Counted from the first letter of the whole stretch, positions 12,973 through 56,109 are shown. The stretch: 58,267 nt of DNA, filler included, from Sphacelaria rigidula (GCA_964200075.2; 9 parts of 9 records of this genome joined end to end with filler, not necessarily neighbours in it); one strand, 5' to 3'. The notes: generated by a model from the sequence alone, not told the origin. Translations and numbers: made by a program.

Positions 12973-13040
12973 CTTAGTCATTTGACCATTGACTAAGGCA
13001 AGCAACAAATGAGTACGCCCCCCCCCCCACCTCCCCCCAC
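12973..13040 (+). mobile_element. LINE extreme 3' end with C-run, fused to an inverted piece of the same element
   Basis: GACTAAGGCAAGCAACAAATGAGTACG is followed by C11. It is preceded by CTTAGTCATTTGACCATTGAC, the reverse complement of the family consensus. Confidence 0.75.
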
Positions 13041-15144
13041 CGCCCTTAACCGGCCCAAACAAGTAGGGAGGTGGGTGAACGTGGTAGCTTCTACGATCTG
13101 CAAAGGTGATTGGGGTGGGAAAGGGTGCGGGTATTGGTGCGTTTCGGGTACCGTTGAATACTCGATGTTGGTAGTGTTCGAAACCCCAGGTATTCGGTAG
13201 GACAAGTATGTCGAAAATTTCAGGGCAAGTTGCGGGCACGGTATCGTACGTGATGCTTGCTCGTGCTGCTGCTACTACTGCTACTACTGCTACTGCTGTT
13301 TCTGTGTTGTAATTCTAAGAATGACGGCGCTTTCTGAGTTTTTCGCTGATATGGGTGGCATTGGTGGGTGGAGCGTTATTATCAAGGGGTAAGCGTAGCT
13401 TGGCTTGGCTTGGCTTGGTGTACAGCCTTTCAAGAGCATTCGCTCTGCATGGACGAAGCCTTGTACCGCACGTGTTCTCGTGGTGGAGGTGTTGGTGAAT
13501 TCGTATTTAGCGGAAATCATGAAGTGGTACACACAAACTTGCTTATCTGACTTCTTTTTTGTTGTTGGTCCTCTCTCCTTTTGCTGGAATTTTCTTGAAT
13601 TTTTCCCGAGTAAGTTTGCCACCGAATTCCGCGTGTTTGAAACTACTTACTCTTCCGGGGCTGCAGACTAGAAGAGGAAGTATAGTGTACCTGCTTGTGT
13701 TTTGCACCCTGAAATGCATTGTTTCTGTGCAAAATCTCGCAGTGGAGAAAAACACGCCACATGCACTCCTTATGTTCGGAACTTTTGTGACATACTGTGT
13801 CAATCGGGGATACGTGCTGTGCCCGTGCCTGAAAATATGGAATGCAAGGGAAGTTATCTTCGCCTCATACCGGCCCGTGCACAGAGAGAGATTTCTCCAC
13901 ATTTGTATACCGTATTCTTGTTGAGCCAGATTTACACGGGTGCATCTGATCTAGTCATTTTTGTTCGTACGTATCTTTTCTGGGCTGCCCGTCCAACGTT
14001 GTCAAGGCGGTTGGGGACTCCTCCCTCCCTCAGTACCCCCATGTAGTCGGTGCGCGCGCCGAAACTCAAATCTCCAGCTATGGCGACATGGCACCCGCTC
14101 AATCGAATCTTGACCGACACATTTGCCCTTCACCGAACAACACAACAATCAATTTTGGAGTGTCCACGGCAAAAAAAAAAAGTCTGATTGTGTCCGCCCT
14201 AGGCGCCTACCAACTTGTCGGGGTTTGCGGGGGAACTGTGTGGCGATTTCGTGCTCTTCTTCCACGACTATTAATACTCCACAAACGAACCAAAGTGTTG
14301 ACGGGGTGGTGGCGGAAATGGACGGTTCTCCCGTGTCGAAGACATGAGAACATCGCTCAGCACCAGTATCCCGGGAAAACCCGCGTTGTATGTCCACGGA
14401 CAGTGTTTGGGAAGAATAATGACTGCACCTCATGTGCCTGTGCAAATCTGGCCTAACTAAGATATGTTGTAGATTATTGTGGAACTTCTGGCGTACGGGA
14501 AGCCAGCACACTTTATATAGGGTGCATGCAGGCGCGATGTAGAAAAGAAGCGGGCAACGCGATATACAGACAGCACAGCTTTCTGACGCTCTGCATTCAG
14601 GAGGATGCGAAGCAAATTTGAAGTACGTGGAGTTTTGCACCGCCTCTACTGTCCATGAGCGCGTTGGCAATTCGATCGCCCACCCCAACACGCAACTCCG
14701 TCGGTGGTCTCTGCCGCAAAATTAGATGCCCAAGTTTTCGCCAACAAAAAAGAAAAATATCATGCCAAAAGAGGGGTGGTGTCGGTTTTCTATAACTGCA
14801 GTGTATGTATCGCTGTACTCCGTTCGTGATTTATGCCGCAAGGTTGAGTAGATAGCTGGGAATGAACCATCCGGAGTTCACGTTGTTCTGTGAAAAGTGG
14901 CATCTGGCACGATTGTCTGTTACATGGGAGTTACGTGCCCCTTCGTTCATTCCGCCGCTAGTTTCGTTCGAAAAAGCTAAGCTTTCCAATTTTTTACCCT
15001 GCCCGCCGCGCGCAACTAATTAAAAATGGACTGGAAGCCATCTGAGAACATAACTGCTGTGGACGTATCTGATACGGCCTCGTAGCGACCGATTTAATTT
15101 GACCGCATGTTTTCGAGTCGAAAATAAATTGATAAGACACGGTA

Positions 15145-15490
15145 TCAACCTTGGGAACCTTCATGAACATGTAAATGTTTTCGAAAAAGGGATGCAAATG
15201 CAGTCCCCGGCTGTGATGTGTGGCCTCGCTCATCCTCGAAAACAAATCCTTCCGCAGCTTATTTTAAAATGTCATGTTAACGGGGCTCTGTGACAAGAAA
15301 GGACAATTTCTTGTACGGGAATGAACGAAGGTGAAAATTTTTGGGGGATGAACACGGGCTTCTACAACGTGCGGATGGATTATCTCGGGAACGGGCGACG
15401 CCACACATCACGGTCGGAGAGTGCATTCGCATTTTTTTTCCTAATTCGAAAACATTTCGCTGCTCACGATGAAGGTTCCCCAAGTTCATC
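15145..15490. repeat. Diverged inverted repeat / foldback element
   Basis: 15148-15265 aligns with the reverse complement of about 15368-15488 (AACCTTGGGAACCTTCAT..AAATGTTTTCGAA..GTGATGTGTGGC). Confidence 0.7.
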
Positions 15491-16447
15491 CTCGAAAAAG
15501 ATCGATCCACAATCTGCAAAATCCCGTGATATTATCTTGATGGGTCGATCATGATCGGTACATACAATCGTGGAACAGTGGTGAGACACGCACACACGTG
15601 CAACATGTAAGATATGTCTATGCATGCTGTAGTGTGTCTTCCATCTGTATTTGAATGTAATCCCCCCCACCCCCCCCCCCCCCCCCCCCCCCCCCTCTCC
15701 AACCCCCCTCTTTCTTCTTTCCTATTTGNNNNNNNNNNTCAACTTGTCTTTCTTTTTTCTTTCGCTTTTGTTTTGTCTCTTTTTTTTTTTTTATTTATTC
15801 CCCCCCCCCCCCCCCCCCTGTCCAAACCAGGCTTTATTCTTTTCGTTTAGGTCGTTATCCGGGAGCCGAGCTTTCGTCTGATATCTCAGCAATACGAATT
15901 AATGAGTGTAGGTGTTAATGACGCAGTTAGTCACTCCCGACTTCGTGTTTTTCTCTCGTGACTTGTTCGAAATTCTTCATCCCTGAACTACTCCAATGAC
16001 CTTCGGCCCTAGGTTCACAGGCGTGGTTGCACCACTTTACCATGACATCGGCAGGCATGACTGATTCTTGTGCTGTCACCGTTGCGAACGCGTACAACAG
16101 CCGCGCCAGTGGTCAATGGACTTGATTGATTGACACACGTAATCTGATCCCCTACGACATTCAGCGGTGGCCTATCACAAGGAATAGTATCCAAGGCGCA
16201 AATAAACGGAAAGGAAAATAAGAAAAATCGCGGGAGGAAACTCGGGTAGAAAACTATGAACATGAAGAAGATGGAAAGAGGGCGAGGGAAACGGAGGAAA
16301 TAGATAGCACGGGCTAAATGGACTGCAAACGAAAATGTTGACAATCATCACAAGCATGACCCCAAAAGTATACTACGGTACAGTACACCGTTTTCTTCCA
16401 TCCTTTGCCTTGGAAGGAATCAGATCACCCGGTTACCCCCTCCCCCG

Positions 16448-16889
16448 GTGGGGGACCCGGACCTGCCAGAAAGAAAAAATATATTTACCAGTCGTCGAAA
16501 GGAGGAGGAAGTAGATGGACAGAACTGTCCCTGTGGCAAAGGAATCGAGAGCAGGGATCATATAGGGGCAGAGTGTGAGCTATACAAGCAAGAACGGGAC
16601 GTGCTAGAGGGGGGAAATGCGGGACGTGAACAAAGATAGCATGAAATGTTTTTATGCTTCAGACAGTAGGAAGAAAACGATAGCTAAACCAGGAGATAGA
16701 TGGTGGCCAGAGACGGCGAAACAGGACGGGGATAAGATATGTAAAAGGTTTCTGTGTAATGTATGGAAGAAACGTATTGAGCGCCGGAGTGTTGAAGGTG
16801 TCTCTAATATGAGTGGGAACGGTGCTCCGTCTCAAAAGGGATGCGTGGTCAGTGGTCAAACGACCAAGGCAAACAACAAATGAGTAGGG
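16448..16889 (+). mobile_element. 5'-truncated LINE: ORF2 C-terminus with CCHC-like zinc motif and 3' end followed by C tract
   Basis: Reads CPCGKGIESRDHIGAEC (CxCx7Hx4C), then a frameshift, then GDRWWPETAK...KGCVVSGQTTKANNK-stop. There are six other homologous fragments in the window. Confidence 0.8.
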
Positions 16890-16927
16890 CCACCAACACC
16901 CCGCCCACCCCCCCTACACCCCCCCCC

Positions 16928-16958
<31 letters not shown>

Positions 16959-16959
16959 G

Positions 16960-17148
16960 ACAATGGACCTACCCCTTATGAGCGGCGGAGATAGTAAGCG
17001 AGTCAACAACAGCAACAAGGAAGAGTTCGTCACCCTCGCCACGAAGCGCCGTTTGCTGGGCGGCGCGGATGCGATGATGACGGCCATGCGCTCCGGTGTG
17101 ACGGACGTGATTCCCAAAAACCTGCTCGCTGTGCTCCTGCCCTCTGAG
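16960..17148 (+). CDS. Internal exon of a HECT-domain E3 ubiquitin ligase
   Basis: cccag|ACA...GAG|gtacgc, 63 codons. DLPLMSGGDSKRVNNSNKEEFVTLATKRRLL...MRSGVTDVIPKNLLAVLLPSE matches the HECT N-lobe pattern (L.pGG..i.Vt..Nk.eyv...f..Gf..vip..ll..f...E). Confidence 0.85.
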
Positions 17149-17329
17149 GTACGCTTCCGTTTCTTTGTTTTTTCTCGTGTGTGCGTTTTTTCGTGAAGAG
17201 GAAATTTCCTGTAAAAACTGGGGAGCGATGTTTGTTTCTGGATAAATACATTAAGCAGGGAAGGGAGGGACCGTGACTTCACCAACCTGCCCCCCCCCAG
17301 TGCCCTGACTACATCCCCCCGCAACAATC

Positions 17330-19357
17330 AACATGAACAAGCTGGAGATACTCTCGAAAGAGATTGAGAGAGAGAGACGGCAAGGAAGGGCGGAGGGAGA
17401 AGTAAAGAGTGGTCGGGCAGAGCATTAGAAGTGCTGGTATTTGGAGTCCGTGGTGACATGATGAAAATAGGGTTGAAAAGGAAATGCAATGGAGTTGGAT
17501 TATACAGTTTTGCAAGAGAAGAAGTAAAAAGGGAGAGAGAACACTTACGAGTCACGCTGAAGCAGAGCGCGAGCAAGGAGTGGGAAACGTTAGAGACCGG
17601 TGAAGTGTCAGCATGGCTTAGAAGGGTAGGATGGAGAGTATGCATAGCTACTGGAACAACAAACCTAAGACGTAGTCCACGGGTAAACGGGGTGAAAGAG
17701 GGGTAGGAACAGGTAAGTGTCCGGAAGGGGAACGGGGGGGACATAGCGGCCGGAAGCAAATGGACAAAAACCAAACCGCAAACGGGAAGAAAATCAAGCA
17801 AGGGAAAGTAGAAGTAAAAGCGACAATGAGGGAATAGTAGACAACAGGAGAGCAGACAATGATTCGGAAAGGAAGTTGAGCATAGGATCGGGGAACGTGT
17901 GTGGATTCGCCACAGTCAAGCGCGAAAAAATGGAGATGGCGCTATGAGTAAGAAACCGCGACCTAGATACCGTAGGAATCGAAGAGTCATGGGAGAAAGA
18001 GGGGGCGGAAATAGAATGCAAATTGAAGAGTACGCATGGACAGCGAAACAGCGGAAGGGACAGAAGCCCAAGAGCAAGGGAGCGGGGGGAGTAGGATTTT
18101 TCGTCAAGGGGTAGCTGTGTGGCAGTATAGAAGTGATCGACGACATTATTTCGACAAGGCCGTATGGATGAGGGTACCAGGAGAGCGGGGAACGAAGGAC
18201 TTCTTCGTAGAAAACATCTACATGCCCCCAGGATCGAAGAGTGGGGTGGACGATATACAGCGGAGGTTTGGGGAGATCGCAGCAGATGTATTCAAGTATA
18301 AAAGGCAAGTGAAAGCGATGTTGGTGTGAAATTTCAACGCAAGGGCAGGAAAAGCAGGTCAACCGGATTATATCATCGGGGCAATGCGGGGAAGATGGGA
18401 AGAACACAAATGGGGTAGAAATGCTCAAGTTCCTTGAGCATAACGAGATGAAGACGCTGAACGATAGAGCATAAAAGTCAGAGGCGCAATGGACATGGAC
18501 CAGGAAATTCAAAGACGAGAGAGAACGCTCCATTCTTGACTCAATAGTGGTGAAGCATGGAAATAGTTACGAAATGAAAGTACATGTATGCGCGGAGGAC
18601 GTGGGAACCACAGATCATTGCCCAATATGGACATGAAGCCATCAGACGAGAGCCAGAAGAAATAGGCGGAGTAGGAAGTTGTACAAATGGAGAGTCGGTT
18701 AACTAGACTTGGAAGAAAAACAGCAAGAGTTCCAAGAAGAGATGGCCAAGATTGCAGTGATTTTATTAACTATTGGAACGCGTAGGTAAAGTTGATACCG
18801 AGATGGAAAGAGATCGGGCAGGAGCGACGATTATAGGAGGATGGGAGCAGTTGGTCAGGAACACAGCGAGTAAAGTCATGGGGAAGAAACTGATCGTATG
18901 CAACAGAGCAGTAGAATGGTGGGATGAGAAGGTAAAATAAGCTAAAATAGTAAGGAGAGAGGCCTACGCGAGATGCATATCGAGTTAAACTACGGCAGGA
19001 TGAGAGGAGTATACTCTAGCTCGAAAGGAAAGGGAATATCGGGAAGGTGTAGTGAGTGAGGGTTTCGATGGCGGGATGAAAAAAATGTGGGCAGGGATAA
19101 AACGAAGATCGGGAAACCAGGCGGGAAATATGGACGAGGGGATAGCTACACTTCGGGGACAAAACGGTAAAATGGTCAGTAGTTCGAAGGGAAAGAGAGG
19201 AATGCTAGTCGTGCACTCCCGTAAACTACGAACGCCGAAAACTAACACGAAGTTCGACACGGAATTCGAAAAAGAGATTAACCCGTGGGCAAAGGCAAAT
19301 GTAGAGACGTGGAAACGGGAGGATAGTGGCTCGACAGAATTGCAGAGAGAGATTACA
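17330..19357 (+). pseudogene. Decayed LINE: ORF1 remnant, APE-type endonuclease and linker (RT lost at contig end)
   Basis: Endonuclease motifs appear in order: IGSGNVCG (17882), GIEESW, GAGGVGFFVK, NIYMPP, xNFNA, SILDSIVV, TTDHCPIW (18607-18630), then WWDEKVK. There are many stops and frameshifts. Confidence 0.85.
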
Positions 19358-19457
19358 NNNNNNNNNNNNNNNNNNNNNNNNNNNNNNNNNNNNNNNNNNN
19401 NTTAATTAATTAANNNNNNNNNNNNNNNNNNNNNNNNNNNNNNNNNNNNNNNNNNNN
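19358..19457. other. Artificial contig linker
   Basis: N44-TTAATTAATTAA-N44. Confidence 0.98.
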
Positions 19458-19602
19458 AACGTTGAAAATAACTGCGCCTCACTACCCAAGCTATACCCGA
19501 TATTCAAGCAATGCTGAAAAGGACCACGCTCGCTGAAAGGAGTAAAATCCATGTTCAACCTTGCTCGAGTGTCTACCCAATCATGTGATGATAATCAAAC
19601 TG

Positions 19603-19727
19603 TACACTAAACTGAAGCAGTCTAATTCTACACTAAGTTCAAGTAGTTGATGATTACACTAAGATCAAGTTGTTTACAAGTACACTAAAGTCAAGTAGTC
19701 TACCGCTACACTAAATTCAAGTAACTA
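19603..19727. repeat. Minisatellite, 5 x 26 bp
   Basis: TACACTAA..TCAAGTAGT core at 19603, 19629, 19655, 19681 and 19707. Confidence 0.9.
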
Positions 19728-20334
19728 GCGCAGGCTCGCCGCCCGGCGCCCAACCCCCCCTGACGAACCCCCTTTTTCCTTTTTTGCCTCGATTTTTTTA
19801 ACGTTGGGGGGTTATGTTCCTTTTAAAAAGAAAATGAACCACCCCTGGTGGCATTGCGGGGCTTCATTAATTCTTTGAGCTGCCGTGGCTCCCTTCTTGG
19901 CTGATGTTGGAGTCTCTCCATGATGATCAGCTAGCCCTCTCGACGTTGTGTGCCTCACGGTATTTTTCACAACCCGCTGGTGACTACACGAATTTGAAGT
20001 GTTCAATAACTCACGCGAACATCATGTGGTTATTTTTCCCTCTCTAGAACCAGATAACGTGTACCTGACCGAGATGAATTAATTATCTGGTGATACACTG
20101 AAAGGCTAATATTTCGTTGGTGGCATCCTCAAAGCTTGAGTTGTTCCTCCCTCATTCCCGCCCCATCGAGTTTGGTTGACTCTGGGGTTGTTCCCCCTTT
20201 CAACTTAATCCTGACAACCCCTTGCGTATACTGAATGCGGTCAAAACACCAAGCCACAAGGTGAGACCTTGCGGCGCGCTAGGCCCCCTGTACCGACCCG
20301 CACTGTTTTCGCGTCCTTTTTCATGGGGACGTCA

Positions 20335-20407
20335 AGTGCGCCCACATATACCGAAAGTTGTGGACTGGCGTCTAGAATAGATGGGACGAGAACATAACAC
20401 ACAACAC
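20335..20407 (+). mobile_element. 3' fragment of the tRNA-SINE family (see 28553)
   Basis: CCACATATACCGAAAG..GGCGTCTAGAATAGATGGGACGA plus a CA-rich tail. Confidence 0.7.
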
Positions 20408-21063
20408 TGATTATTCAACACCTTTTCATTTGAGCAGTTTCCCTTGCCGTATTTTTGTGTCTGATTTTATCATCACACGACGGTGTCATGTCCCAGCTGG
20501 CGATAGCTTTGTTGACTTCACCTCGACTGATTTGAAAAATCATGGCATACCACTTGATGTCGAATACAGCCGTGCATGTGTCCTCCTGGTTTGGGCTGTT
20601 TCCAGTCACTTGTATTTGGGATTTGGGGGCCGGAGGAAGCCGACGGCGAGAGTTAGGGTAGTCTGTTTTCCATTATTTTAGCAGCTGCTCTGCTCGCGGC
20701 GACAACGATTTGAGTATCCTGGTGTGCAGGTTGAGCGGTACCCATAATATTCTACGCCTTCGATAACGTCTAGACTCAACCTGTGCACATGTTTTGTGTC
20801 CCTGCTATAGTGTTGCATGCACTTGCATCTTCGTTGTCTCTTGCCCGCCTACAGCAGTCTCAAGTACGAGGAAAGACTACACAAAAAATACACAAGACTT
20901 GACGACCCGGCTCTGCGATATCTTCATTTCATAGTCAGTCGTCTTGGACGAATTGACTTACTCGTCTCGAGAATAACTACCGACCAACCACCGTGTTTCG
21001 TTTTTCCCGTGGGTGCGAACGCCGGTCACATTCTGCGTTCGTTTACACGGTGTATCCATCCAG

Positions 21064-21239
21064 GGCTGAAGTACGAAGACTTGTTCTTCGATGATGATCC
21101 GGCAGTGAAGGAGGCGATCAGACGCCTCACCCCAGAGCAGAAGCTCGCCCGCGAGCGCCGTCTTTTCAGGGCGATGGACATCTCCCTCAAGCGCGTGCCC
21201 CTACCCGAGCACATCCAGAAGGCCCACGATCCCTTCGAG
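21064..21239 (+). CDS. QCR7: Cytochrome b-c1 complex subunit 7, internal exon
   Basis: ccag|GG...GAG|gtgaaa. GLKYEDLFFDDDPAVKEAIRRLTPEQKLARERRLFRAMDISLKRVPLP matches QCR7/UQCRB (GL.YdDl..e...V.EAlrRLp....aR..Rl.RA.dlSlk...LP). Exon 1 was not found on this contig. Confidence 0.92.
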
Positions 21240-21834
21240 GTGAAACGCTTTATAAAAGGATTTTGAGTGTGGCGCTGTAATATTTCCGACGACAACCCTT
21301 TGTTTGGTGTGGTCGAGGTCAGCGATTGTGATTATTGCTTTGATTGAGCCTGCACACTCAGTAAAACCGTCCTTCATCTGCACTAAAACCATGAACGAGA
21401 AAAAAGCTGTGGCCAACATGTTCGCGGCTCCGCAGGGGAAGGCACCTGCGAAATACGGAGACTTCAACACAGTTTAAGATGCGAATCGCTCGCAATACAT
21501 GTAGGAATTTCCCCCCAAAAGTGTCGTGGCTCTTCCGGATGGATGAGTCAAGCTAGCCAATCAGAAGCAAAGGGTCCGTCCGGTCGGTTCCAAGTGAACG
21601 CCGGAAGGCCTCCTGCGCACGCTACACACAATGCCGCAGGTACAGTGCTCATAGTCGTACTGATTTTTTTTGAAGGGAAGATTATTCGATGCAGATGGCC
21701 CACCCTCGGGGTGACTATAGACAAACCTGAATCGAAACAGAATACAGAAGCAACAGGAGTACAATGCAGTACAAAAGCTGTGTGGTACAGTGCAGTGTTG
21801 TCTCATTCCCCCCCCCCGCCCGCCGCTGATTTAC

Positions 21835-22011
21835 TTCCCTTCTTCTATGGGCACCACCTGTGATCAGATTACACGAAAACTCTGAAAAGCGTTGAACCTG
21901 TGAGCCTCGACGGTGGGTCATCTGTGTCTTGCGTTCATCTTTCAAGTCAAAGTTATGCCAATGCACAACAGATGACCCGCCCGGAAGGTGGTTGTATACA
22001 GTACTCTTCTC

Positions 22012-22053
<42 letters not shown>

Positions 22054-22650
22054 ACCTCCCTTTCTTCTGCCCCCCCTCCTCCCCCCCACAAACACNNNNN
22101 NNNNNTGCGGTCTCCTTTTAAGTCAAAGTTTTGCCAATGCAACACAAGACCCCCCCCCGGAAGGGGGTTTTTTTCAGTTCCTCTTCCCCCCCCCCCCCCC
22201 CCCCTGCGTTCCTTCCCATTGCTCCCATTATCTGTGGGTATCACCATGGACCAGAGTCAGAAACCTTCGGAGAGCGTGAACCCGTCCTGCCCCTAGCCCT
22301 GAAAGTGAAATATTTGGCCTCCACGGTGGGAAATCCGTGTCTTACATTCATCTTTCAAGTCAAAATTGTGCCAATGCACAACATATGACTCGCCCTGAAG
22401 GTGGTTGTATATAGATGGACAAAGCTAAACAACAAGGCACAGTACATTGCAGGACAGTACAGTTCGGTAGCTTGTTGTCTTCTCTCTCTCCTTCCCTGTG
22501 TTCCTTCCCCTTGCTCCCATTATCTATGGTTTATCACCATGAACCACATTACAAGAAACCTTGGAGAGCATGAAATCGTCCTTCCCGCAGCTCTGAAAGG
22601 GGACCTTCGGGAGTCCACGGTGGGTCATCTGCGTTTTGTTCATATTTCGA
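21835..22650. repeat. Diverged tandem repeat (~290-400-bp units) in the QCR7 intron
   Basis: CCCATTATCT.TGG..ATCACCATG...CCACGGTGGGTCATCTG...TTTCAAGTCAAA.TT.TGCCAATGCACAAC recurs near 21835, 22225 and 22517. Confidence 0.7.
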
Positions 22651-29752: not shown

Positions 29753-29758
<6 letters not shown>

Positions 29759-32073: not shown

Positions 32074-32327
32074 TTTCGCGAGTTGTCCCGGTTATTTAGC
32101 TTGAGCATGTCAATCTCGTGAACGCAGTGGAGCCGTGGCTGATGAGAAAAAAACGACAACCAATCGGTCAGTATACCAATCACGTCATCAAAATCAACAA
32201 AACACTCACTCGTCCACACTTTTTACGATACCCCCCCCCCCCCCCCCCCCCCCCCCAACACCCACAGCGCTAGGAGGGGCGGCGGAACAATCTGGCCGGG
32301 GGCGGACGGGGCAAACAAAAAAAAAAA

Positions 32328-37758: not shown

Positions 37759-37795
37759 GCCGGGCGGGAGGGCGTACTCATGCCGGGCGGGAGGG
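37759..37795 (-). mobile_element. 9-nt LINE 3'-terminal insertion with 14-bp TSD
   Basis: GCCGGGCGGGAGGG - CGTACTCAT - GCCGGGCGGGAGGG. The insert is the reverse complement of the family terminus ATGAGTACG. Confidence 0.7.
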
Positions 37796-38334
37796 GGGGA
37801 ACAAAAGAGAGCGGTGGGGCGCACGCATTTGTTCGTCGGAAAACAAGATCGGCCTTATTTTCATTACTCATGAGGAGAAGGGCGACACTCGCAATCTCAA
37901 AATTATCCCCATCATAGACACGAGAGAAAGAAAAAAAGTGTGGGGGGGGGGGGGAAGAAACAATGCAAGATGGTAAGAAAACGAGCGTAGAACCCAAGGA
38001 AATCAATGAAAACACGTGTGCGTATCGTAGACCGGACTACACATACTGCAGCATGGTGTCTTGACAGTAAGCACCTGCCGATATGATTCAAGACCACATT
38101 CCTACGGACGACAATGTAGGTTACGCTCCAACGCCTCGCGTTTACAGGATTCCTGCGCGAAACCAGAGTCAGATTATTTCACGCGCCCTTTGATCTAGCA
38201 TCGATAATCACAGCACGAGTAAAAAGCCCGACCTCTCGTCGCGATCACTTGGTATCCTGCCCGCAAGCATTATTCCCTCACGCAATTGCATTTACACTAC
38301 TACCGTTGGGGAAGTACTGCAGTATGATGCATTC

Positions 38335-39256: not shown

Positions 39257-41370
39257 CAGCAGCAGTAACAACAAAATAACGACAAACACAAAGACAAACA
39301 CAAGGACGAACAAAGACAAAAAGGATGATGATCGTGCATTACGTAGCTGATTGCAACACTCCAGCTCGTAATCAGAAACAAAAAGGAGAAACATGAAAAA
39401 AAGCGGACGCAGGTGAACTTCTATGCCACGCGCGGCACGCGGTGCCGCGATATGTTCAACCGCCTTTTCCGATTGAGTGCTATCTAGCTCTTGATTGGGT
39501 GTGAGCTTCGAGTGGGAGGCCGTTGCTTCCATGTATCCCATTAATGGATGGAACGCTAACATGTGTGACTTCTATGTATAAATGATGCCGATTCAAAGTA
39601 TCATCTACCCTAGCGGTCAAAGTAGATGCTCCTCCGATTTAAAAGTTGAATGTGCAGGTCTAGGGTATCAACCCGCCGAGATTCCAAAGAATGTATATTA
39701 CGTAATATTTGTTTTATTTCGGGTTATATATCCAACGACTACCTCTTCGAGATTATAACCATTTTACCGTGAGGGTTAACAATCTGGGTCGCGCTGTAAA
39801 TTTTCAAGTGAAAATCATGCCGATTCCATCAATAGACACCAGCGGCGCTGAGTGTTCGTTTGTGGAATCAGCATCAGTTTCACTTCTTTCTCGAGTAAAT
39901 GGCTGACAAGCTCATACTCAGTCGAATCCTAGACACTCAATCTGGAGAAAAAATTGCTGCTTACACTCAAATCGACACCGTAGGACAACCACACCCTCGA
40001 CAACAGATTACGTTGTCAAAAAGTGTACTGCGTACAGTAGCGACTGTTACGTGTGTTTGTCGTAATAGGCAAAAGATTCCATACTGTACGCAGTACACTT
40101 TTGAACAAAGCAATCTATCGTTCAGGGTGTAGGGACAACACATCCCTTGGCTACGTAGGACATGGTCGCTGGCCGAGTCTTCGGTCTGCTTTCGCCGGGG
40201 TTAGTATTAGGGCCGGCGTTACATTGTAATTGGGGCAGTCTGTGGAGAAGATTCGGACACGTGTTTCTACCCACGATTTATGAAACAGGCCTTGGAGGGG
40301 GGGGGGGAAATGCCAATGCTTGCACCACAGGGCCTGAGATAGGGCGGGAAAAATGTGAGTACTGAGCTTTCAGAGCTCCAAGAGAACAAAATGCGGTATA
40401 AGCGCGAACATAATTTGTTGCTCAGTACACATATATAATACATGTTTGGATGGCAGTGTGTTTCGGTGGATGAACAGGTGTGCCGCGAGCGGGGAATGGG
40501 ACAGGGAGAAGAGATAGAGCTCCCGTCACGCTGGCGACTGATGACGTGTCCGGGCAGAGAGGCCCGTCGCGCACGTGCGAGAGAGAGAGAGTATGGGAGC
40601 GAAACAGCACAAACGTTCTGTCTCCTAAATTATCGGAATGGACGAAGGGCTCGGACGGAAAACGAATGTACTCTAGTTCTAAGTGAGAACTCGCGAGCGC
40701 GCCGAATACTAGTCTGTGACATGTCGAGAGAGTTTTTCTCCTGGGCTCCGAGGAAATTTTCTAATATATAATTAGGTTATGCGTAGGGTGACACCACGAT
40801 AACCCCCCACACACTCAAACAAACCAGGCCCAAAACTTTCACGAAGAAAATGGACATACAAACAACACTTAAGTTATCGTTTCAGACTGCATGAAGCGCG
40901 CCTCGACCGGGTGAAAATGACGAAAATGATCCCGAGCGTGCGAGTCCCCGGCTGCCCCATGTGCTCGGCTTCTGTCACTTTGATTTGCATGAATATTTTG
41001 CCTCCTCGAACCAGTCCCTTTTCTGGGGGGAGCAATCGCGGCATCACGCCGTAGCTGTGTATGAAAACCATCATTATTACATGTGGACGCCCTGACTCTA
41101 ATGCAGCGCTTGTACCGTTTGACTACTCATTCATTTGTTTCCCTCCCCATCGGATAGCACAGGTGGTGATAACCGTTCCAAGTACACCGTGTTGGAAAGA
41201 CGATGCCGTCATTTCCAGCCGAACGCGGAAAGATACCTGACAGGAAATCGCGAAGACCATGCGTCAGCTTCGTAGCAGTTTTTTTTCGTGGCGTCATTAC
41301 ACACCGCCCCTACTTGGTACGTCCCCGAGAGTCGCTCGCGCAACGCAATGCATTCAGCACTACTAGTTAC

Positions 41371-43328: not shown

Positions 43329-43498
43329 CTTCGAACAGCCAGCAATCGGCAACGAATTGGAAATACGGAAGGGTTGAGATGGAAAACAGACGCTAACATC
43401 ACGAGCATCACGCCGCGAGCATCTGAAATATAATATGAGCGTGAAACGACGACGTGCGCGGTCTCACCCCACATCCGTTTGTGCTTCACCTACTTCAC

Positions 43499-45190: not shown

Positions 45191-45297
45191 GTATATTGTG
45201 TGGTAAAAAACACCGAGTTACAACTTTTCTTGACTAAGGCCGCTTCCTATGATAGACAAAAATAAAAACCCGGAAAAATGTCTTTTTGGAGCTTTTA

Positions 45298-45397
45298 NNN
45301 NNNNNNNNNNNNNNNNNNNNNNNNNNNNNNNNNNNNNNNNNTTAATTAATTAANNNNNNNNNNNNNNNNNNNNNNNNNNNNNNNNNNNNNNNNNNNN
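45298..45397. other. Artificial contig linker
   Basis: N44-TTAATTAATTAA-N44. Confidence 0.98.
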
Positions 45398-46379: not shown

Positions 46380-46476
46380 CCCTTAGACAGCGAGAGTAGG
46401 TCATCTGTTGATTCGGCATCATTTTCACTTGACAGAGAATGCATGATCCAGATGGACTACTCTCGCGGTCTAAGGG
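46380..46476. mobile_element. piggyBac-like MITE, best-preserved monomer (97 bp)
   Basis: TTAA CCCTTAGACAGCGAGAGTAG ... CTACTCTCGCGGTCTAAGGG TACA. The TIRs are 19/20 identical. Confidence 0.8.
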
Positions 46477-47352: not shown

Positions 47353-50299
47353 TTAAACCACTGCCTCTTCGAAGTTACTGATTATACCCTGCATCAAGTT
47401 CATTTCACCGGCGCTACCCGCCTTCGCGAGCGGAGTCCACCACGAATCGTCTCCTTCCTCCTCAGCGGCAGGTGCCGGCACGGAGACGCCTCCGCCTGCG
47501 GCTTGCTCCGGTGCCCACCCCGCGTCGCCACTGCTGTCGGCTGCTATCCCTCCGAACAAGTCATCTTTCACCCCCGACAGCAGTTGTTGCTGTTGCTGAT
47601 GTTGGGCGCCCAGCTCGGGAAATTGAGACTGCGCCAGGGGAGGGAGGGGGGCGCTGTGACGGCGACGCAGCTGCTGACCTTTGGTCGCGCGTGCCATCGC
47701 CGCCGCCTCTGCCACCTGCTCGTCCATGCTGGTGACGTTGTTGCTTAGCTCCTTACCACCGCTGCTGTTGCTGTTCACGCGCCCGTTCCACCGTACCCCC
47801 GACTCGGCCGAACTCAAGGACGACAAGACGCCGCCGACTTTAGTTAGGTCAGAATCGGACACATCGGACATGCCCGTCGAGGCACGCCGAGGAATCTCCG
47901 AGAGTTGCGGCGGCAGCTGCTGCTGCAAAGGTTTGTTCGATTTCTCTCCGCCCAAGACTTGGCTCAATACGCCGCCGTCTCCACCAGAACCATGAAGAGG
48001 GGCCGAGATCCAGGTTTTGCTCGATGTGCGATGGTGGCTTCGATTGGACCCGTTCAATGGAGACGTCGAGCGCATCGCGGCGCTTGCCGCTGGCGCCGGA
48101 AAGTACGTCCGTTCGTTGCCACCACCATCCAGCGGCGGGAGACCTACACGCGGCGACAGCGCTGCAGACGGAGACTTGGGAAAACGCTCGGGGAACGCCT
48201 TGCCCCCGACCCGCCGCGCCTTTGGGCTCGGTGCCCCGCGGCCGGTTCCGCCGGTACCGTCTCCGTTAGGGGAGGGCAGGCCAAACTCAGGGAACGCTTC
48301 CTCTCCTCTCCGTCGAGCCTTCGGACTGGGGCCGGTCCCCACCCGGCCGCCGGGCTGGACATAAACGCCACTTCCACCCATGCGGCCTCCGACCGCGGTG
48401 CTCCCCTGTGGTGTTGTCGGCGGGCGCGGTGATGAGCCCACCCTGGGGCTGATGCCCCCACCGAGACCTTGAGACAACCACGGCACATTTCCGCCGCGCG
48501 AGGACTTGCTGGGAGTGTACGCCCGAGGCGGCACTTGGTTTCGGGGCCTGCCCAGCCCGCGGGGCCCCGGGCGGGGCGCCCCGTTCCCCGAGCCCTGGAC
48601 GAGTGAACTGTTGCCGGAACCCGCGCAGTTGACGGGCGAAGCTGTGGCGGCGTGAATGGGAGACGCGCCGCCAAACATTTGCTGCTGACCGAAGAGTTGG
48701 GGAGACCCGACACCTCCGGAGGCTAAGCTCCGCGGCGTACCCCGCTGGCCATTCGTTCCTCGTGGGAGAGGTGGCAAACTAGCGCCGACGTTCTGTAGGT
48801 CTGGGAACGTGTTGTTACCATTGAGATCCGGGAATGGACCGGGGACATCCTCACCCTCCAGCAGCTCGTCCATGACGCCGAAGCTTTCCATGAGCAGGGC
48901 GTCCTCCAGCTCTTGTAGGTCCTCAGGGGACACTCCTACGGGATCCGAGGTCCCACCACCGCTGCCTGCCTTGTTGCCAGTGGCGGTCGCCGATTTTTGT
49001 GCACTCCCCACAGATGAGTCAACGCCAACAACGCCGTCTCCCGCCCCAGTTTCTAGATGCTGCTGAGAACCGCAGGAAGGCTCATCGTCATCGTCATCGT
49101 CGAACTCGAGGAGGTGCGAAGTATCCAGGCTCTCGACATCCGTCGAAGCCAGAGACGATGTGGTGGACAAGGACTTCTGAGGTCGTTGGCGACGGGGGTG
49201 AGAGGAGTGAATGGATTGCATTTGAGTCTGACCCCAGTGGCTTACACGAGGCGCGGAGGGCCGCCTTGACGCCCCGGCGGCCGGAGCAGACTTGGCCCCT
49301 TCCGGCATGACGAACATTCCCGTCATGGCATCCACTTTCCCCCCGATCTGTTGCAGGCCACCCGCCCGCATCATCCTGTTGTGCCTCGCGATATACTGCT
49401 CGGCTGTTGTCGGCGACAAACAGTGTTTCGCCGCGGGCGAGAACCCTCCCGGGAAAGAAGCCCCGGGCGAAATACGATCACCGCCGCCGGGACTTGTGCC
49501 CGCCACAAGGGTATCACAGCTGCTCACCGGGCTGTCGAAAAGCGACTGCTCCAGGGGCATCGGTTCCTGAAGAAAACTGCCACTTTCAAGGCCGTGTCGC
49601 GCAGGCGCAGACAGTGGTGGGCCCTGGGACAGGACGCGGGTCCCACCGGGGGTGTGCTGCTGCTGTCGCGCCTGCCAGTGTTGACCCTTCGTGGATGATC
49701 CGGATCCCGCGTAAGCCGCGTTGTTGTGGCCCCAACCCACACGCGCGGGGTCCTCGCCAATGCCGCTGTTCCCATTCCCAAGGTTGCTAAGTGCTGGTGA
49801 GACGCTGGTCGTCCCGGACGCCGACGATCCCGGCCGGTTAACGCTGCCGTATGCCTGGGCCAGATTGGCCGTGTACTCTTCGTGCGACGTAGCGATCGCG
49901 TCCACGAGGGCTGGGGGGCGGGCGCCTCGCCGGGCGCCCGGGCGAGCCATGACGTCGCCCACTGAGGCGGAGCGTCCCAAGGATTGTGACGATGGGTTGG
50001 ACGAGGACGAGGACGGTGCACCGTTGGTTTGCACGCAGGCCGGCAGTGAACCATCGCGCTGGACGGTGGCAATGAGCTCGACGAGCGGCTTGCCCTTGAC
50101 GCGCTTGCGCTTCGTGATGGTCTTAAGGGCGGCGCTGAGCTTAGGCATAAGCTCCGGGTTTCCAAATATGTCCTCCTCAGAGACGTTGTCGGTGTCGGCC
50201 AGGTACAGCGCATTGCGGACGTTGGGGTCAACGCCCGCGGCAGCGCCGCGGGTGATTAGTCGCTTCTTCTTCAGGGCGGCCTCGATCAGCTTGCGAAAT
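47353..50299 (-). CDS. ~2.9-kb terminal exon of an uncharacterised protein (basic helical N-part plus long S/G/P-rich disordered region)
   Basis: 998-codon ORF. The likely acceptor is acgcag|ATTTCGC. It reads FRKLIEAALKKKRLITRG...KLSAALKTITKRKRVKGKPL and then becomes low complexity. Confidence 0.88.
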
Positions 50300-50520
50300 C
50301 TGCGTCGTTCGGTTGTTCGGCACATGGGGATCGTTCGTCTCGGGAGCATTTAGCACTGCAGGTTTGTATCCCAGTATATTTCGCCTTACCATTTACAAAA
50401 TGTTTGGGCATGCCGAGTGTACAGGTCATGACAAAAGGAGGCGAGAAGTGCAAACTACCGTGAAAAAAAGCAAGAGACGGGCACGTGTCAGACGGCGGCT
50501 GAGCGATGGACCCACCTCAA

Positions 50521-50615
50521 CCCCTTGGCCATGAGGGTAGTCCATCTGGATCATGCATACTTCTTTCAAGAAAGATTAAAGCCGATAACGGATCACCTAT
50601 GCTACCCTTGAAGGG
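50521..50615. mobile_element. Diverged intronic copy of the piggyBac-like MITE
   Basis: CCCCTTGGCCATGAGGGTAGTCCATCTGGATCATGCATACT...AAGGG. Confidence 0.6.
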
Positions 50616-50667
50616 TTTCTGAGACAAAACAGAGAAGCGGGAAAAAGAACCGAACAAGGTAACTTAC

Positions 50668-50692
50668 CTGCCCACAAGTACCCCTTTGGGTC
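50668..50692 (-). CDS. Putative 25-nt microexon upstream of the large exon
   Basis: cttccttag|GACCCAAAGGGGTACTTGTGGGCAG|gtaagt ends in phase 2 and joins to give PKGVLVGRFRKLIEAAL. Confidence 0.55.
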
Positions 50693-51460
50693 CTAAGGAA
50701 GATTTACAAAACTGGCTTGCTGAGAGGAGCGGCGACTCATTCCGCTACACCCACAGCACAAGTGCATCACGCCTGGCGCTAGCTGTTGCCAGTGTATACA
50801 CAATGCTGTTTGTTTCACGGCCACTCTTTCGGTATCGCCCGAGGATCGCCCGTATGTCCGCACAATAAATTTCTCAACATGGAGCCGTGAGCAATTTGGG
50901 GACGTCTTATACGGCGCCTGACAGAAATCATTGTGTCTCATTCAACATTGAACCGATTCGCCCCGAGCCGAAAACGTCGTACTCAGGTAATCATTGGCTG
51001 GATTGTGTACGTGTAGTGTGCTTCCATCGTGTGCTTCAGTCACGCTCATTAAGATTTCCAATTTTGTACCCGACTGCGTCCAATGCGGAATGAGTGCGGA
51101 TATTATTCACTAGACGGGTGTACCGTAGTACTTTTTACAGCAACAGTCATTACGCCGCTGATTCATGTTGCTGTTCATGGCGAATACTATCTGAGCCAGC
51201 CGACAGTCTCTTCTTGTCAGTTTACAGGTGATACGACACATCAACACGCGCACCATCTCACCATCTCAGGGAATGCCAAGAAGAAGAAAAAAACAGGAGG
51301 AGTAATTTGAAACTTCAACCAAAACTAGAAAATGTCGAAGAAAAAAACGGCGGCATCCGTCACGAATTTTGTACTTGCGCGCAGAAGATCATGAGATTCC
51401 GGCTAAATACTCCCGGAATTGGGTCGAGAGTGGAACTTTTCGTGTGACGCCGGCCGCTGC

Positions 51461-51530
51461 ACCCCGGTGGTCCACCTGATATAGGAGCCTCTATTTACAA
51501 GGGTAACGAGTTCGAATTCCGACACGGATA
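51461..51530 (+). mobile_element. Degenerate tRNA-like SINE head
   Basis: CCCCGGTGGTCCACCTGA ... GAGTTCGAATTCC. The downstream AAGGCCGCTTC.TAT motif is also at about 45237. Confidence 0.35.
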
Positions 51531-51782
51531 TGTTTTTTCCTAGAAGGCCGCTTCTTATAGACTGAAAAAGAGTCTGTCTGAGAACTGCCCTTTTGAACCT
51601 TTCACCTCAGATTATTGGCGGAATACGGGCCTTGGCGGATTTGGGCCCCTCGGAAAGATTTGAATATTTTTCACGAGGATTCCAACGCCGCTTGTCCGAT
51701 CTTTCGTACTCCCAGTTTCACTCTTGACCAGATCCTGGATTTTTTCAGTCGCCGCGAAAATCGTCCAGTTGTCGGGAAAAAT

Positions 51783-51882
51783 NNNNNNNNNNNNNNNNNN
51801 NNNNNNNNNNNNNNNNNNNNNNNNNNTTAATTAATTAANNNNNNNNNNNNNNNNNNNNNNNNNNNNNNNNNNNNNNNNNNNN
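51783..51882. other. Artificial contig linker
   Basis: N44-TTAATTAATTAA-N44. Confidence 0.98.
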
Positions 51883-51900
51883 TGTCAGGAGGTCAGTGAG

Positions 51901-51978
51901 AGGGGTTGGGGTTGTACTCATTTGTGGCTTGCCTTGGTCGTATGACCATTAACCACGCATCCCTTTCGAGACGGAGCG
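51901..51978 (-). mobile_element. LINE 3' fragment with C-rich tail
   Basis: APSRKGCVVNGHTTKASHK-stop followed by GTACAACCCCAACCCC. Confidence 0.8.
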
Positions 51979-53814
51979 GGTGGAGGAACCAGGGGAGACA
52001 TACGTCGATCCCTTAGGACCATGAACTCGTCCAGAGAAGTGGGCGGGGGGGGGGATTGAAAGTGTGACAGGAAATAACAAACAAAAAAAACACCGAATGG
52101 CATGCACATATCAAATGTCATCGCCTAATTTATCACCGAATAGCCGAATTAGGTATGTGTCAAACGTCAAAAATGCCACTTCGCGGAAGAGACAGCGCTG
52201 CATCCACCACCCCAAGCTCAACCGCCAGAGCTACCACGTACACTGTACTACTCATCATGGCTGCACAAACTCTCGCTTGGCCCTCGGGTACCGCCGTCGT
52301 GTGGGGCGCGCGTTTGAACTGCCTGCACGTCTTCCATCCAGAAGACTAGGCCCGAAGCTCATGAGAGTAGGGCGGCACGTGCACTGCACCAGGTCGACAG
52401 GGGCTCAATATGGGTCGATCCCCCGCACGGCCTCAAGCAAAGGTTGCGAACGCTCGAGGCGATTACCCCACGTCCACATCACTGCCAGGAGGCAGCTAAT
52501 CCGAGCCTTCAGGTAATCGTCACACGAACCCGCTCGCGGGATGAGTGTTGGGTCAGGTTTCTTCCTTTCTAGAATGAAAGAAAAAAAAAAGTATTCAATC
52601 TCAACCGGACATTTTTTGGGGACTTGAGAACTCCGCAGCTTTGGGTGCCGGCAGCGGATGTCCACGTTCCACACAAGACCCCGATTCTTCTGCGGTGGAG
52701 GACAAAAATGGCACGGTTCTCCTGTAACAGCGCGAGGCAATAGTATGCGGTGCTTGCGCCCTGGAGTGCAGCACGTGCTGGGAACAGTTTGTTCGACCCC
52801 CCAAGGACTACTATCCAAGATTCTGCTATCGCAGGCTGGGGGGGGAGGGGGAGGAGGCACTGAAGCAGTCATACTCAATCGCGTACAGTTTCCATGAGCA
52901 CCGGAAGTCCAGATATTGCTGAGTGCCTTCACGACAAGTACCAAGGCACACCGCGACATTCACATCGGTAGGTAGGATACAACGTGCTGGGCACAGCAGG
53001 GCGATCAGGACGTCTGCCTCTGATCATCGATAGCTCCGCGAACTTTCATCCCCCGTTACACCCCGTAAGACATGAGATGCAATGAACAGGGGACGCTTCC
53101 TCCGGATTCATGTAAAAAATGATATTTCGTATGACGCTTGACGTTTGCACACAAAGGAATGCCGGAGAGAAGTGGGAAACAGATGTAGTCACTTAAATTT
53201 CAAAGACGCAAACACCCGTTGGCGAGCAGATGCGAAGCCAGCCAATACTGCACCCCCAGGCACACGAAAAAAACGGTCATGAAGGTCGGCGGGACGGCGC
53301 AGCTGCTAAAGTGCCCATGACAAGCGAGGAATAGGGCAACATAAGCAGCATCGGAAGCGAGCAATGACATGCAAGATGGAGCCTCGGTCAACATACTCGC
53401 TTCTGCTTGCGAGTCGCGCCTGAGCGAATCGGGCTACGCTACAAAGAGCTTCCATCGCCACCGATCTCGATCGAATTTATCCGCAACCCTGTAGCAACGC
53501 GCTTGAGATGCGGCAGTCTTTCAAAGGCGTCCATCTCGGCAACTACAGGTTTTGCCGACCACTACTCATACAGGCGTTTCGCATCGCAAGACCTTCCCGG
53601 GGACGCAGCGTTCAGTCTTCATATTCTTCAGCAGCGCCGTGCAGGACTGTACACAATCGTACGATAGTGGTCGACGCTAACCCTTTTGGAGCCGTCCCCC
53701 CCATCCCCGGGTCAGACGCCTGATTCCATCGAGCCTTGGAAAAAAAAAAACTATATATATATATATGGGAAAACGGAGGAAGACCGAGCCCAACCATGGA
53801 TAGAAATCAATAGC

Positions 53815-53908
53815 CATCAATAGAGGGCGGGGGGGCGTACTCATTTGTTGCTTGCCTTAGTCGTTTGACCATTGATCATACCTCCCTTACGAGATGCATC
53901 CATAGAGG
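53815..53908 (-). mobile_element. LINE 3' fragment (~61 nt) with C tail and TSD
   Basis: Ends ...AACAAATGAGTACG followed by a short C-run. It is flanked by CATC(A/C)ATAGAGG at 53815-53826 and 53897-53908. Confidence 0.8.
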
Positions 53909-56020
53909 AGAAGGTCGAGGAAAAATACCCAACAGCACACGCCGGGGGCTACAAAAAACGTCACCCCGGTGTGGTCGGGCCATTGTCGTCCAATAAGAGC
54001 ATGCTCCGGGTGGAGTGTTCACCATCGCATTCATGTCGTCATATCATCGGTCAGTCGTAGCATGATAAAAATCCCATACCGCAAATCGTCAGCATGAGGT
54101 CTAGCAGTTCCCGGGTTCAGCATGTCGCGTTTGTGGAGGTGACAGCAGCATGCAGGAGCATGCAAAGTTGTAAACCCCATGCTGTACAGATTGTTATCCT
54201 GTACGTACTATTAATGTGAATAATGGATGGTGACGATGACCATGTAAGCGAGCGGCACCCCGCTCTCCGTGCCCTGTTGTACATATCGCGGCTTTTCGTC
54301 ATGCGTAAATGAGCAGACAGGGAGGGAGGGCTGTGTTATCGTCTTCCTCCACTGGCGGCAGCATCAGCCAATTAGCCAAGCCAAGAGATAGCTTTGGTCT
54401 AGCCTTGACTCGACACGTTTATTCCTTCATCTCAGAAAAATTGCTGCTCGAGCTGTGAGTCAGGTAGAATTATGAGTTTTGTCTATCAGTTCTCGCTTGC
54501 CGAAGGTGATTCTGGCGTCTGACTGTGAGTAAAGCGTTACTAGGCCCATTATGTTTCAAAGCACATGATGCTGGTTAGATCGTCTATCGTGTAGCCCGTG
54601 CAAGGAGGGAGGGGCCGTTGACGGCATGCCCGAAACAGGGAAAGGATGTATCAGTGCGAAATTGTAAGTGGCCCAGCTCACGCCTGCGGCATACATGAAG
54701 GTTGTGTTCATTGTTACTGTACAAAATATGACACGCCCTCCAGGTGCTGATAATGGATTGCTGTACGCGTGGAGGACAATAGTGCTTGATAGCGTGCTAC
54801 TTATTATTTTGTGTCCCCCGGCTGTCTGTACTGTCGGCTCGTACTGTGTATGAACAAAAGGCAGCGAACCGGTCGACAATGCGTGACGTTGCCGTCCATT
54901 GCTGCGGGTGTGCGGATCTGAGAATCCAGCGTTCTGTCTAATATACCGGATAAAAAAACTGGTAATGCATCAACCACAGTTGCACGGAATATCGTCAGTC
55001 CGAAATTGCCAGTCTTTATACAAAGAGCTCCCAAAAGGGTTAGCAGCGCTTTTTAAAATCATCGGCACCCCAGTTCATTACTCGGCGCAGTCTCGCTCAC
55101 GCCCCCCAAAGGTTGGTGAGGGGGCCTCACCGGAGGGGCCGCCTGATCCAAGGAAGTGTTGAAGCTCAAGATCGTGTCACTTGGCTTGCGGTCAAATTGT
55201 GCTCGGAACTATTGCTTTTCCGGGTGACATGGCGTGCCCGTGTACGAAAACGCGGAGATGTTTTTTTAGGATTTTCATAGAAAATAATGGAGCAGAACCC
55301 CTGCTCGATTTCGAGACAAGTGAGGCGTAGATTTTCGCTTTACATCGCGTTCATGGGGCACATGCTTTGCAAGTGGTGCACGCTGGGCAATACTACTGCT
55401 GCAACATGCGCGGAGACAACATACCGTCCGCCGATGCTTTCGCATTCTTGGCACTTTGCGGGCGATACCGGCATACCTAGAGCATGTTTTAAAATAGTGC
55501 TGCAATGCGTGTCACATCGTCTCGACTGCGCCGTTCGGCACTGCTGCTGTACCACACAGACAGTACTCCTTCACCGGTCGCGAAGCACAGCAGTACAGGA
55601 CAATTCTTGTGCCAGTGCCCTCCACTGCACACAATCTACGCCGTTCTCGTCTCTGCATGAGTGTTTACAACACTGTCCACTACCTCAACAACACAGCAGG
55701 TGACAGACAGTTGGCAAAAACTGCCCAAAAGAGTAAAAACCACCCCATGTTTTGTGACCCTGAACTACTCAGTGTGTTGCTACATAAATGGTGAGACAAA
55801 GTTTGACTGCGAGACAAGCAGTGACAGGTGACCGTTCGGAGAACATAACCGACCATTTGACAAATCGAAAGTATCGAGATAATCACGGCTCTCCCTCATT
55901 AGCCCGCATCTTATCCAAACACTTCCTGGGGACACGCATGGTTGATCTGACCGTATACTCGGCTGATACGTGAACCCTACCCCTCCCCTTCGAAAAAAAG
56001 CACATCCACCCCCTCGCTTT

Positions 56021-56109
56021 GCTCCGTCTCGAAAGGGATGCGTTGTCAATGGTCAGATAACTAAGGCGAGCAACAGATGGATACGCCCCCCCCCCCCCCC
56101 CCCCTCCCC
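56021..56109 (+). mobile_element. LINE 3' fragment with long C-run
   Basis: GCTCCGTCTCGAAAGGGATGCG...CAACAGATGGATACG followed by a C-run of about 18 nt. Confidence 0.8.

Follow-up and report, generated by a model that had tools for sequence, protein, structure and literature searches.

The 58,267-base stretch of DNA from Sphacelaria rigidula (GCA_964200075.2) that was analysed here, referred to below as the window, carries six or seven 5′-truncated copies of a single family of long interspersed nuclear elements (LINEs) that end in runs of C. The family is likely to be a C-tailed LINE of the RTE-X type that inserts at C-rich sites by target-primed reverse transcription and reuses old tails as targets. 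An earlier note on the same DNA had described the fragments and had interpreted them as a G/C mirror of the L1 system; its observation was confirmed, and its interpretation was partly supported. The window is composed of nine pieces of 6385–6386 nt each, separated by N44-TTAATTAATTAA-N44 spacers, and N10 scaffold gaps lie inside two of the pieces (15729-15738 and 22096-22105). The seven fragments, which the earlier note had placed on five contigs, were all mapped; they are spread over four spacer-bounded pieces, and the number five holds only if the gap at 15729 is counted as a boundary.

The copies were mapped by BLAST and local alignment with an intact copy from outside the window (L002) as the reference, and positions in the element were numbered backwards from the last base of GTACG. 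The 23-mer used in the earlier note had four matches in the window at up to three mismatches, compared with none expected. Six of the seven fragments retain a 3′ end, and in all six the boundary is identical, at 5 nt past the TGA stop codon (...AAA-TGA-GTACG). A C-rich run follows the element end in every one of these copies, with 10, 5, 8, 7, 9, and 10 C among the 10 nt past the 3′ end, while at least 8 C in the next 10 nt occur at 0.54% and at least 6 C at 3.5% of the background positions of the window. The same was observed at the element ends on four contigs outside the window (4/4), and an A-run or poly(A) was absent from all ten 3′ ends checked (six in the window and four on the outside contigs). 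The copies thus end as the earlier note had claimed, a few bases past the stop codon of the open reading frame (ORF), in a C-run and not in poly(A).

The 5′ ends of the copies vary (−441, −243, −66, −65, −59, and −9), and the 15 nt upstream of them contain 13, 10, 11, 8, 4, and 9 C (six copies), compared with a background mean of 3.8 C per 15 nt in the window. Five of the six 5′ flanks have at least 8 C per 15 nt, a level found at no more than 3.8% of the background positions. Because the sense strand is rich in C at the sites of insertion, the priming strand would be G-rich, in agreement with the earlier note. Target-site duplications (TSDs) were examined by an ungapped search against 1000 shuffles in the five window copies with both junctions, and were significant for the copies c4 and c6. 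The c6 unit (53815-53909, minus strand) consists of an upstream TSD copy TCCTCTATGGATG (53909-53897), then the terminal 61 nt of the LINE (53836-53896), a tail CCCCCCCG (53835-53828), and, past this tail, the downstream TSD copy CCCTCTATTGATG (53827-53815). The two TSD copies, which start with (T/C)CCTC, match at 11 of 12 positions, a score equalled by 10 of the 1000 shuffles. Because the C-run stands between the element and the downstream TSD and is missing from the upstream copy, it was inserted in this case together with the element. The fragment c4 (37773-37781, minus strand) is only 9 nt long and corresponds to the terminus ATGAGTACG; it is flanked by perfect 14-nt direct repeats CCCTCCCGCCCGGC (37795-37782 and 37772-37759; whole unit 37759-37795), which start with CCC and whose 14/14 match was equalled by none of the 1000 shuffles. 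A 9-mer of this kind is expected 0.25 times by chance and is insufficient by itself, and it is the flanking repeats that make c4 credible; we therefore read it as a putative, extremely truncated insertion with its TSD. The TSDs at c4 and c6 are 13–14 nt long, and the tails range from 7 to over 29 nt. Taken together, these data support the assertion that the fragments are 5′-truncated members of one LINE family with TSDs, and both a C tail and a C-rich target seem to hold.

Further copies were found outside the window. An exact scan of metagenome contigs with the 23-mer returned three loci (L001, L002, and L003), and a protein-profile scan of a prokaryote genome collection returned a fourth (L004), located on a mis-binned contig of 5259 nt. 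GTACG is followed by C8 in L001, C10 in L002, CCTC7TCCTCCC in L003, and C13 in L004, and the sequence beyond is unrelated. L004 carries the entire ORF (1068-5144) and ends in ...AAATGAGTACG followed by C13. About 550 nt before the start of its ORF, at 470-530 (plus strand), the 3′-end region of the family recurs in inverted and diverged form (..GGTGCTCCGTCTC.. when read on the opposite strand), with C-rich sequence after it; this may represent an older insertion of reversed orientation or a part of the 5′ untranslated region (UTR). No DNA match and no protein relative was found in viral contigs.

To the assembled copies we added Logan contigs of four public runs (up to three samples from two studies), which were compared with positions 16380-17000 of the window at a likeness of at least 80%. 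Between 20,810 and 37,487 contigs matched in each run, and with tens of thousands of matching assembled contigs the family is extremely abundant in the genome. The summed depth rose at 16443, peaked at 16821-16862, and collapsed past 16884; in run X1, it fell from 1.6 million in the bin 16863-16883 to 11 in the bin 16905-16925. The best-supported loose end behind 16886 was formed by 567, 545, 385, and 533 contigs in the four runs, and its consensus was CG followed by a C-run in 4/4 runs, with an agreement of 0.53–0.57. Neither a longer shared 3′ UTR nor poly(A), the counter-observation raised in the earlier note, was present among the listed loose ends of the four runs or on the four outside contigs. 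The collapse of the depth and the C-run loose ends together argue that the family has no longer shared 3′ UTR and no poly(A). Among the 12 listed rows for the letters between two matches, four joined a 3′ end through a C-rich linker of 14–25 nt to an internal position of another copy; these are head-to-tail tandem copies. With regard to a 3′ end of 60–100 nt in common with abundant non-autonomous elements, the summed depth was about 4-fold higher from about −67 onwards (bins 16800-16820 versus 16821-16841). The 5′ end lies between −59 and −66 in three of the six window copies that were mapped, and no non-autonomous body was identified.

The remaining copies in the window are as follows. The longest, c3 (16447-16888, plus strand), extends from −441 to 0 and comprises the last 441 nt of the ORF with one frameshift, the stop codon TGA (16882-16884), and a terminus mutated to GTAGG; a CCHC motif (CPCG..H....C) is encoded within it, its 5′ flank upstream of 16447 is GTTACCCCCTCCCCC, and its C-rich tail (16889-16957) is 69 nt long with a final part of C9 G C29. 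An internal ORF fragment, c1 (6310-6384, plus strand; −243 to −168), is 5′ truncated behind the flank CACCCCCCCCTCCCC (6295-6309) and is cut on its 3′ side by the end of the piece. The fragment c2 (12991-13017, plus strand) holds the last 27 nt of the element with the terminus ATGAGTACG, followed by C11 ACCT C6 ACCGCCC at 13018-13045, and is cut by the start of the piece at 12973. The 18 nt before c2 (12973-12990, plus strand) are not collinear with the element and represent the reverse complement of its hairpin region; such a small local inversion, here on the 5′ side of a truncated copy, recalls twin priming. On the minus strand, c5 (51913-51977) comprises the last 65 nt with the terminus GTACA, followed by ACCCCAACCCCTCTCAC..., and the piece ends 30 nt into its flank. 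Finally, c7 (56020-56085, plus strand) corresponds to the last 66 nt in diverged form (76% identical) with the terminus GATACG and the tail C19 TCCCCG (56086-56110), and a candidate TSD, ATCCACCC.. (56004-56015 and 56111-56122), was read by eye and was not significant in the ungapped test. A very short candidate fragment of the LINE end is located about 40 nt upstream of c4 (37820-37833, minus strand), where AACAAATGCGTGCG matches at 12 of 14 positions and is followed by CCCC.

The architecture of the element was deduced from the outside copies and from full-length relatives. The outside copies encode 671-amino acid (aa) open frames with an RVT_1 domain, which was matched by the proteins P0001 and P0002. 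Two full-length relatives, P0003 (1360 aa, 80% identical) and P0004 (1328 aa, 73% identical), start with Met. P0003 contains Exo_endo_phos at 170-392 and RVT_1 at 740-989, P0004 has the same layout, and each is encoded by one ORF. The motif CPCG..H....C is present at the C-terminus of both proteins, after RVT_1, and the translated c3 shares 62% identity with the end of P0003. Over 475 aa, P0004 is 92% identical to the LINE portion of a gene model from Ectocarpus sp. CCAP 1310/34 that is chimeric, a match from which the host would be a brown alga or something closely related. For the window family, the identity to the Ectocarpus sp. protein model is 66%, and the C-terminus ...NGQMT.ASNK is common to this model and the proteins of the window family. 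A sequence search of the Protein Data Bank (PDB) returned only reverse transcriptase (RT) domains of L1 and R2 and did not help in the placement of the clade; the closest solved structures were those of human L1 ORF2p, for the RT region only (E = 7e-21). These results suggest that the element is in good probability an RTE-X-type LINE with an apurinic/apyrimidinic endonuclease (APE), in which one long ORF encodes an N-terminal region, the APE endonuclease, the RT, and the CCHC motif, and in which (C)n directly follows GTACG.

The earlier note knew of no described LINE of the poly(C) type, but such elements are on record, an outcome that the note itself had named as one that would remove the novelty. 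Supplementary Material 3 of PMC12477816, a study of the transposon landscape of Ectocarpus (Genome Biol 2025), lists RTEX-1_Ec32 (5867 and 5511 bp) as 'single EN-RT ORF; (C)n 3'', where EN denotes endonuclease, and RTEX-2_Ec32 (5582 bp) as '(C)n termini/TSD', each with a TSD that is 'C-rich'. According to the same source, the non-autonomous RTEX-N1/N2_Ec32 share the 60–100 bp 3′ end and 'can be present in tandem', the Ectocarpus RTE families (RTE-1/2_Ec32) have (CAA)n tails and the CRE family has (CA)n, and the best blastp hits of the RTEX elements are RTEX-4_NV and RTEX-1_BF (PMC12477816). The term 'C-rich' occurs 0 times in the main text of that paper, so that the trait is recorded there only in the supplementary table. 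Besides these supplementary entries, no C-tailed LINE was described in the titles and abstracts of the searched literature; PMC4421812 (Saccharina RTEX-1), PMC5753468, PMC11203168, and PMC3905857 provide context at the level of the clade only. The window family resembles RTEX-1/2_Ec32, with their non-autonomous partners RTEX-N1/N2, in the single EN-RT ORF, the (C)n 3′ end, the C-rich TSDs, the high abundance, the tandems, and the putative importance of a short 3′ end for mobilisation, and it differs from RTEX-1/2_Ec32 in its host genome and in about 66–80% protein identity. We infer that the Ectocarpus protein model is a copy of RTEX-1/2. The (C)n tail with C-rich TSDs was thus already annotated for the RTE-X elements of Ectocarpus, and our data extend the record to another genome without adding a new category.

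A sister lineage was identified by the protein-profile scan in the loci L006-L016, L018, and L021, including L007 on a separate contig. The sister copies are 33–57% identical to the query in the best segment, several match nearly the whole ORF, and the ORF layout is the same. Their 3′ ends have in common with those of the window family the DNA motif GCGTGGTCAATGG, the hairpin described below, and, within a few bases of the stop codon, a terminus ...CATGAGTA, and the sister copies end in ...CATGAGTAT followed by (ATT)2–4, or in (TATT)n, beyond which the flanks diverge. TSDs could be read by eye in two of ten copies, starting with AATTG.. and ATTAC..; these A/T-rich starts continue the tail repeat. 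As the sister lineage bears (ATT)n on the same 3′ motif, (C)n is a lineage-specific simple-repeat tail. The record set that holds L006, L008-L016, L018, and L021-L032 is filed as a metagenome-assembled genome (MAG) of Nitrospirales; its contigs are 0.09–2.8 Mb long and contain dozens of copies of a eukaryotic APE-type LINE. In all likelihood, the set represents a eukaryote genome, or else extensive contamination from a eukaryote, that was entered as a prokaryote. Mis-binned contigs of a similar kind occur in other MAGs (L004, L005, L007, L017, L019, L020, and L026).

A hairpin near the 3′ end was examined in 22 3′ ends of three lineages (alignment A3, columns 13-17 paired with 22-26). The stem is 5 bp long with a loop of 4 nt, lies about 25 nt from the terminus, and occurs in the forms GGTC-AAAC-GACT, GGCG-TAAG-CGCT, and GGCA-GAGA-TGCT. 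Pairing was possible in 93.3% of the cells, compared with 82.7% in shuffles (0/500 reached the observed value) and 26–54% when the partners were slid, and 13 cells were changed on both sides (again reached by 0/500 shuffles). Two pairs vary on both sides: the pair 16-23 is CG in 10, UA in 6, and UG in 3 sequences, and the pair 17-22 is GC in 10, CG in 6, and AU in 1. The covariation evidence for the hairpin is real but thin. The sister lineage, its (ATT)n tails, and the hairpin in three lineages are new in this study.

The family was also compared with other known LINE systems. It shares with L1 the APE endonuclease, the hallmarks of target-primed reverse transcription, and a homopolymer tail able to pair with the nicked target strand. 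L1 has a poly(A) tail and a T-rich nick site; in contrast, the window family is without poly(A), its full-length proteins show no separate ORF1, its C tail cannot be remade by polyadenylation, and the sequence of its 3′ end is conserved, suggesting that recognition is probably sequence-specific and not by the tail only. In stringent LINEs such as eel UnaL2, a 3′ stem-loop is combined with a repeat tail. The window family is similar to these in the conserved hairpin near a short repeat tail, and probably also in having a 3′ end in common with short non-autonomous elements, whereas its hairpin lies inside the coding sequence, its tail is mononucleotide, and it is known here from sequence alone. 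With RTE-1/2_Ec32 the family has in common a single EN-RT ORF that stops just short of the 3′ terminus and a tail of simple repeats instead of poly(A); it differs in its repeat unit of a single C and in a longer ORF (about 1330–1360 aa) with a C-terminal CCHC motif, which RTE proper is not known to have. As for the G/C mirror of L1 proposed in the earlier note, the C-rich tail and sites stood, and a stringent RTE-X-type LINE with a simple-repeat tail is the better description, because of the single EN-RT ORF, the conserved 3′ hairpin in the coding end, and the (ATT)n tails of the sister lineage.

On the basis of these comparisons, insertion may be envisaged as follows. The RT would recognise its own RNA in the 'stringent' manner, by the hairpin and the ...GAGUACG terminus that make up the conserved 3′ end, with C residues following GUACG on this RNA; the endonuclease would nick the G-rich strand at C-rich sites, and the G-rich 3′-OH end would pair with the C tail and prime cDNA synthesis. 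Slippage on the homopolymer, at priming or in later replication, may produce the varied tail lengths, and the reuse of older tails as targets would generate tandem copies and spread poly(C)/poly(G) tracts. A wider proposal, which we regard as speculative and rather doubtful, is that the repeat tail sets the landing site, because the nicked target strand has to pair with it, so that a switch from (ATT)n to (C)n moved the brown-alga lineage from A/T-rich to C-rich sites. As every insertion would then leave behind a fresh C-run open to further insertion, the family would be self-seeding and the main source of the many poly(C)/poly(G) tracts, and of the tandem arrays, in these genomes.

The C-runs may be explained in other ways, of which the least improbable is that the element is tail-less, stops at GTACG, and is inserted specifically into pre-existing poly(C), as are microsatellite-specific LINEs, each adjoining C-run then being target DNA. 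Such an explanation would account for the 14-nt TSD of c4, which begins directly past GTACG, for the C-richness of five of the six 5′ flanks, and for the presence of 26 C-runs of at least 8 nt in the window, and the interrupted 69-nt C-rich stretch of c3 and the ambiguous c7 could likewise be target sequence. However, the upstream TSD copy of c6 is without the C-run, yet CCCCCCCG stands between GTACG and the downstream copy, and the runs of L001, L002, and L004 are short and discrete (C8, C10, and C13) with non-C-rich sequence at once after them. In addition, the curated consensus sequences of Ectocarpus include '(C)n 3'' (PMC12477816), and (ATT)n at the same place in the sister copies fits an element-borne tail. 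We therefore consider a tail-less element unlikely.

Somewhat less likely still is a scenario in which the C-run is absent from the RNA, the RT adds untemplated G to the primer as cDNA synthesis begins, and the endonuclease alone picks C-rich targets. Untemplated addition by the RTs of LINEs is known, and the variation of the tails from 7 to over 29 nt would be expected from it; on the other hand, the interruptions of the tails (T, A, and G) are of the same kinds as in the flanks, the tandem copies share C-rich linkers, and a 3-nt repeat such as the (ATT)n of the sister lineage is not easily made without a template. That the C-runs are artefacts of sequencing or assembly, for example poly-G read ends joined to repeat ends, is hardly credible. 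Homopolymers clearly disturb this assembly, and both N10 gaps adjoin very long C-runs, but the runs at the LINE copies are internal with unique flanks and TSDs, are always found on the sense strand past GTACG, and recur in four independent outside assemblies as well as in the contigs of four runs. They are also present in the curated library from a long-read Ectocarpus genome (PMC12477816).

Several points weigh against a C-tailed RTE-X LINE as the explanation and were taken into account in our judgement. At c4, the TSD directly abuts GTACG, so that the C residues there are target sequence and not tail, and the TSD search was non-significant for c3, c5, and c7 and significant in only two of the five copies. 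The window is rich in C/G runs of at least 8 nt, and of the 26 present, 22 are outside the 3′ tail of any recognisable copy, so that the C-richness of the flanks is partly background. The loose-end result represents the best-supported rows, beyond which there are 2166 further loose-end rows. The hairpin counts correspond to about three independent lineages and the region is coding; in the brown-alga lineage alone (RNAalifold, seven ends), 0 of 18 predicted pairs were compensatory, and the terminal 78 nt of the intact element folded no better than shuffles did (z = −0.85). The putative identity with RTEX-1/2_Ec32 is based on shared features and on the Ectocarpus protein, the published consensus having been compared by its description only, and the C tail on the transcript is something we infer and not a transcript end that was seen.

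The recognisable 3′ tails account for 4 of the 26 C or G runs (one each in c2 and c7, and two in the c3 tail). The sequence ..TACGAT(A/T/AG) precedes three other C-runs (6532-6541, minus strand; 8754-8761 and 32231-32256, plus strand), and a second C-tailed family behind them was considered as a candidate and found to be unsupported, as no longer similarity was found. The gap at 15729-15738 sits between C26 (15670-15695) and C19 (region 15670-15818), and that at 22096-22105 between C41 (22013-22053) and C19 (region 22013-22204), with near-duplicate sequences on either side of the latter (21930-22031 and 22106-22204, 81% identical). Poly(C) is apparently where this assembly breaks or stutters.

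Other features of the window were as follows. A Pfam scan of the ten longest ORFs of the window found no family and gave no gene by which to place the host. An open frame of 998 aa with a Met start at 47353-50349 (minus strand), in a stretch of 65% GC, is of low complexity and rich in Ser, Gly, and Pro, has no Pfam family, and possibly corresponds to a disordered protein encoded by a single exon. By self-BLAST, self-complementary stretches of 90–280 nt with arms 72–92% identical were detected at 10229-10398, 4677-4926, 57029-57295, 2615-2704, and 39991-40130, which could be foldback repeats, either like miniature inverted-repeat transposable elements or of another sort, with no relation to the LINE. 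Further repeats were present in the self-BLAST of the window, and none of these was seen to terminate at a C-run.

A homopolymer C tail is rare, since the tails of LINEs are normally poly(A) or short repeats that contain A/T. In the searched literature, the mechanism of the C tail is represented only by a note in a supplementary table. The family probably seeds the poly(C)/poly(G) tracts that break the assembly, as at the N10 gaps beside C26-C41, and such tracts can form DNA prone to G-quadruplexes. The family also provides a natural test of the contributions of tail-primer pairing and endonuclease specificity to the target choice of LINEs, for which the (ATT)n sister lineage offers a ready comparison.

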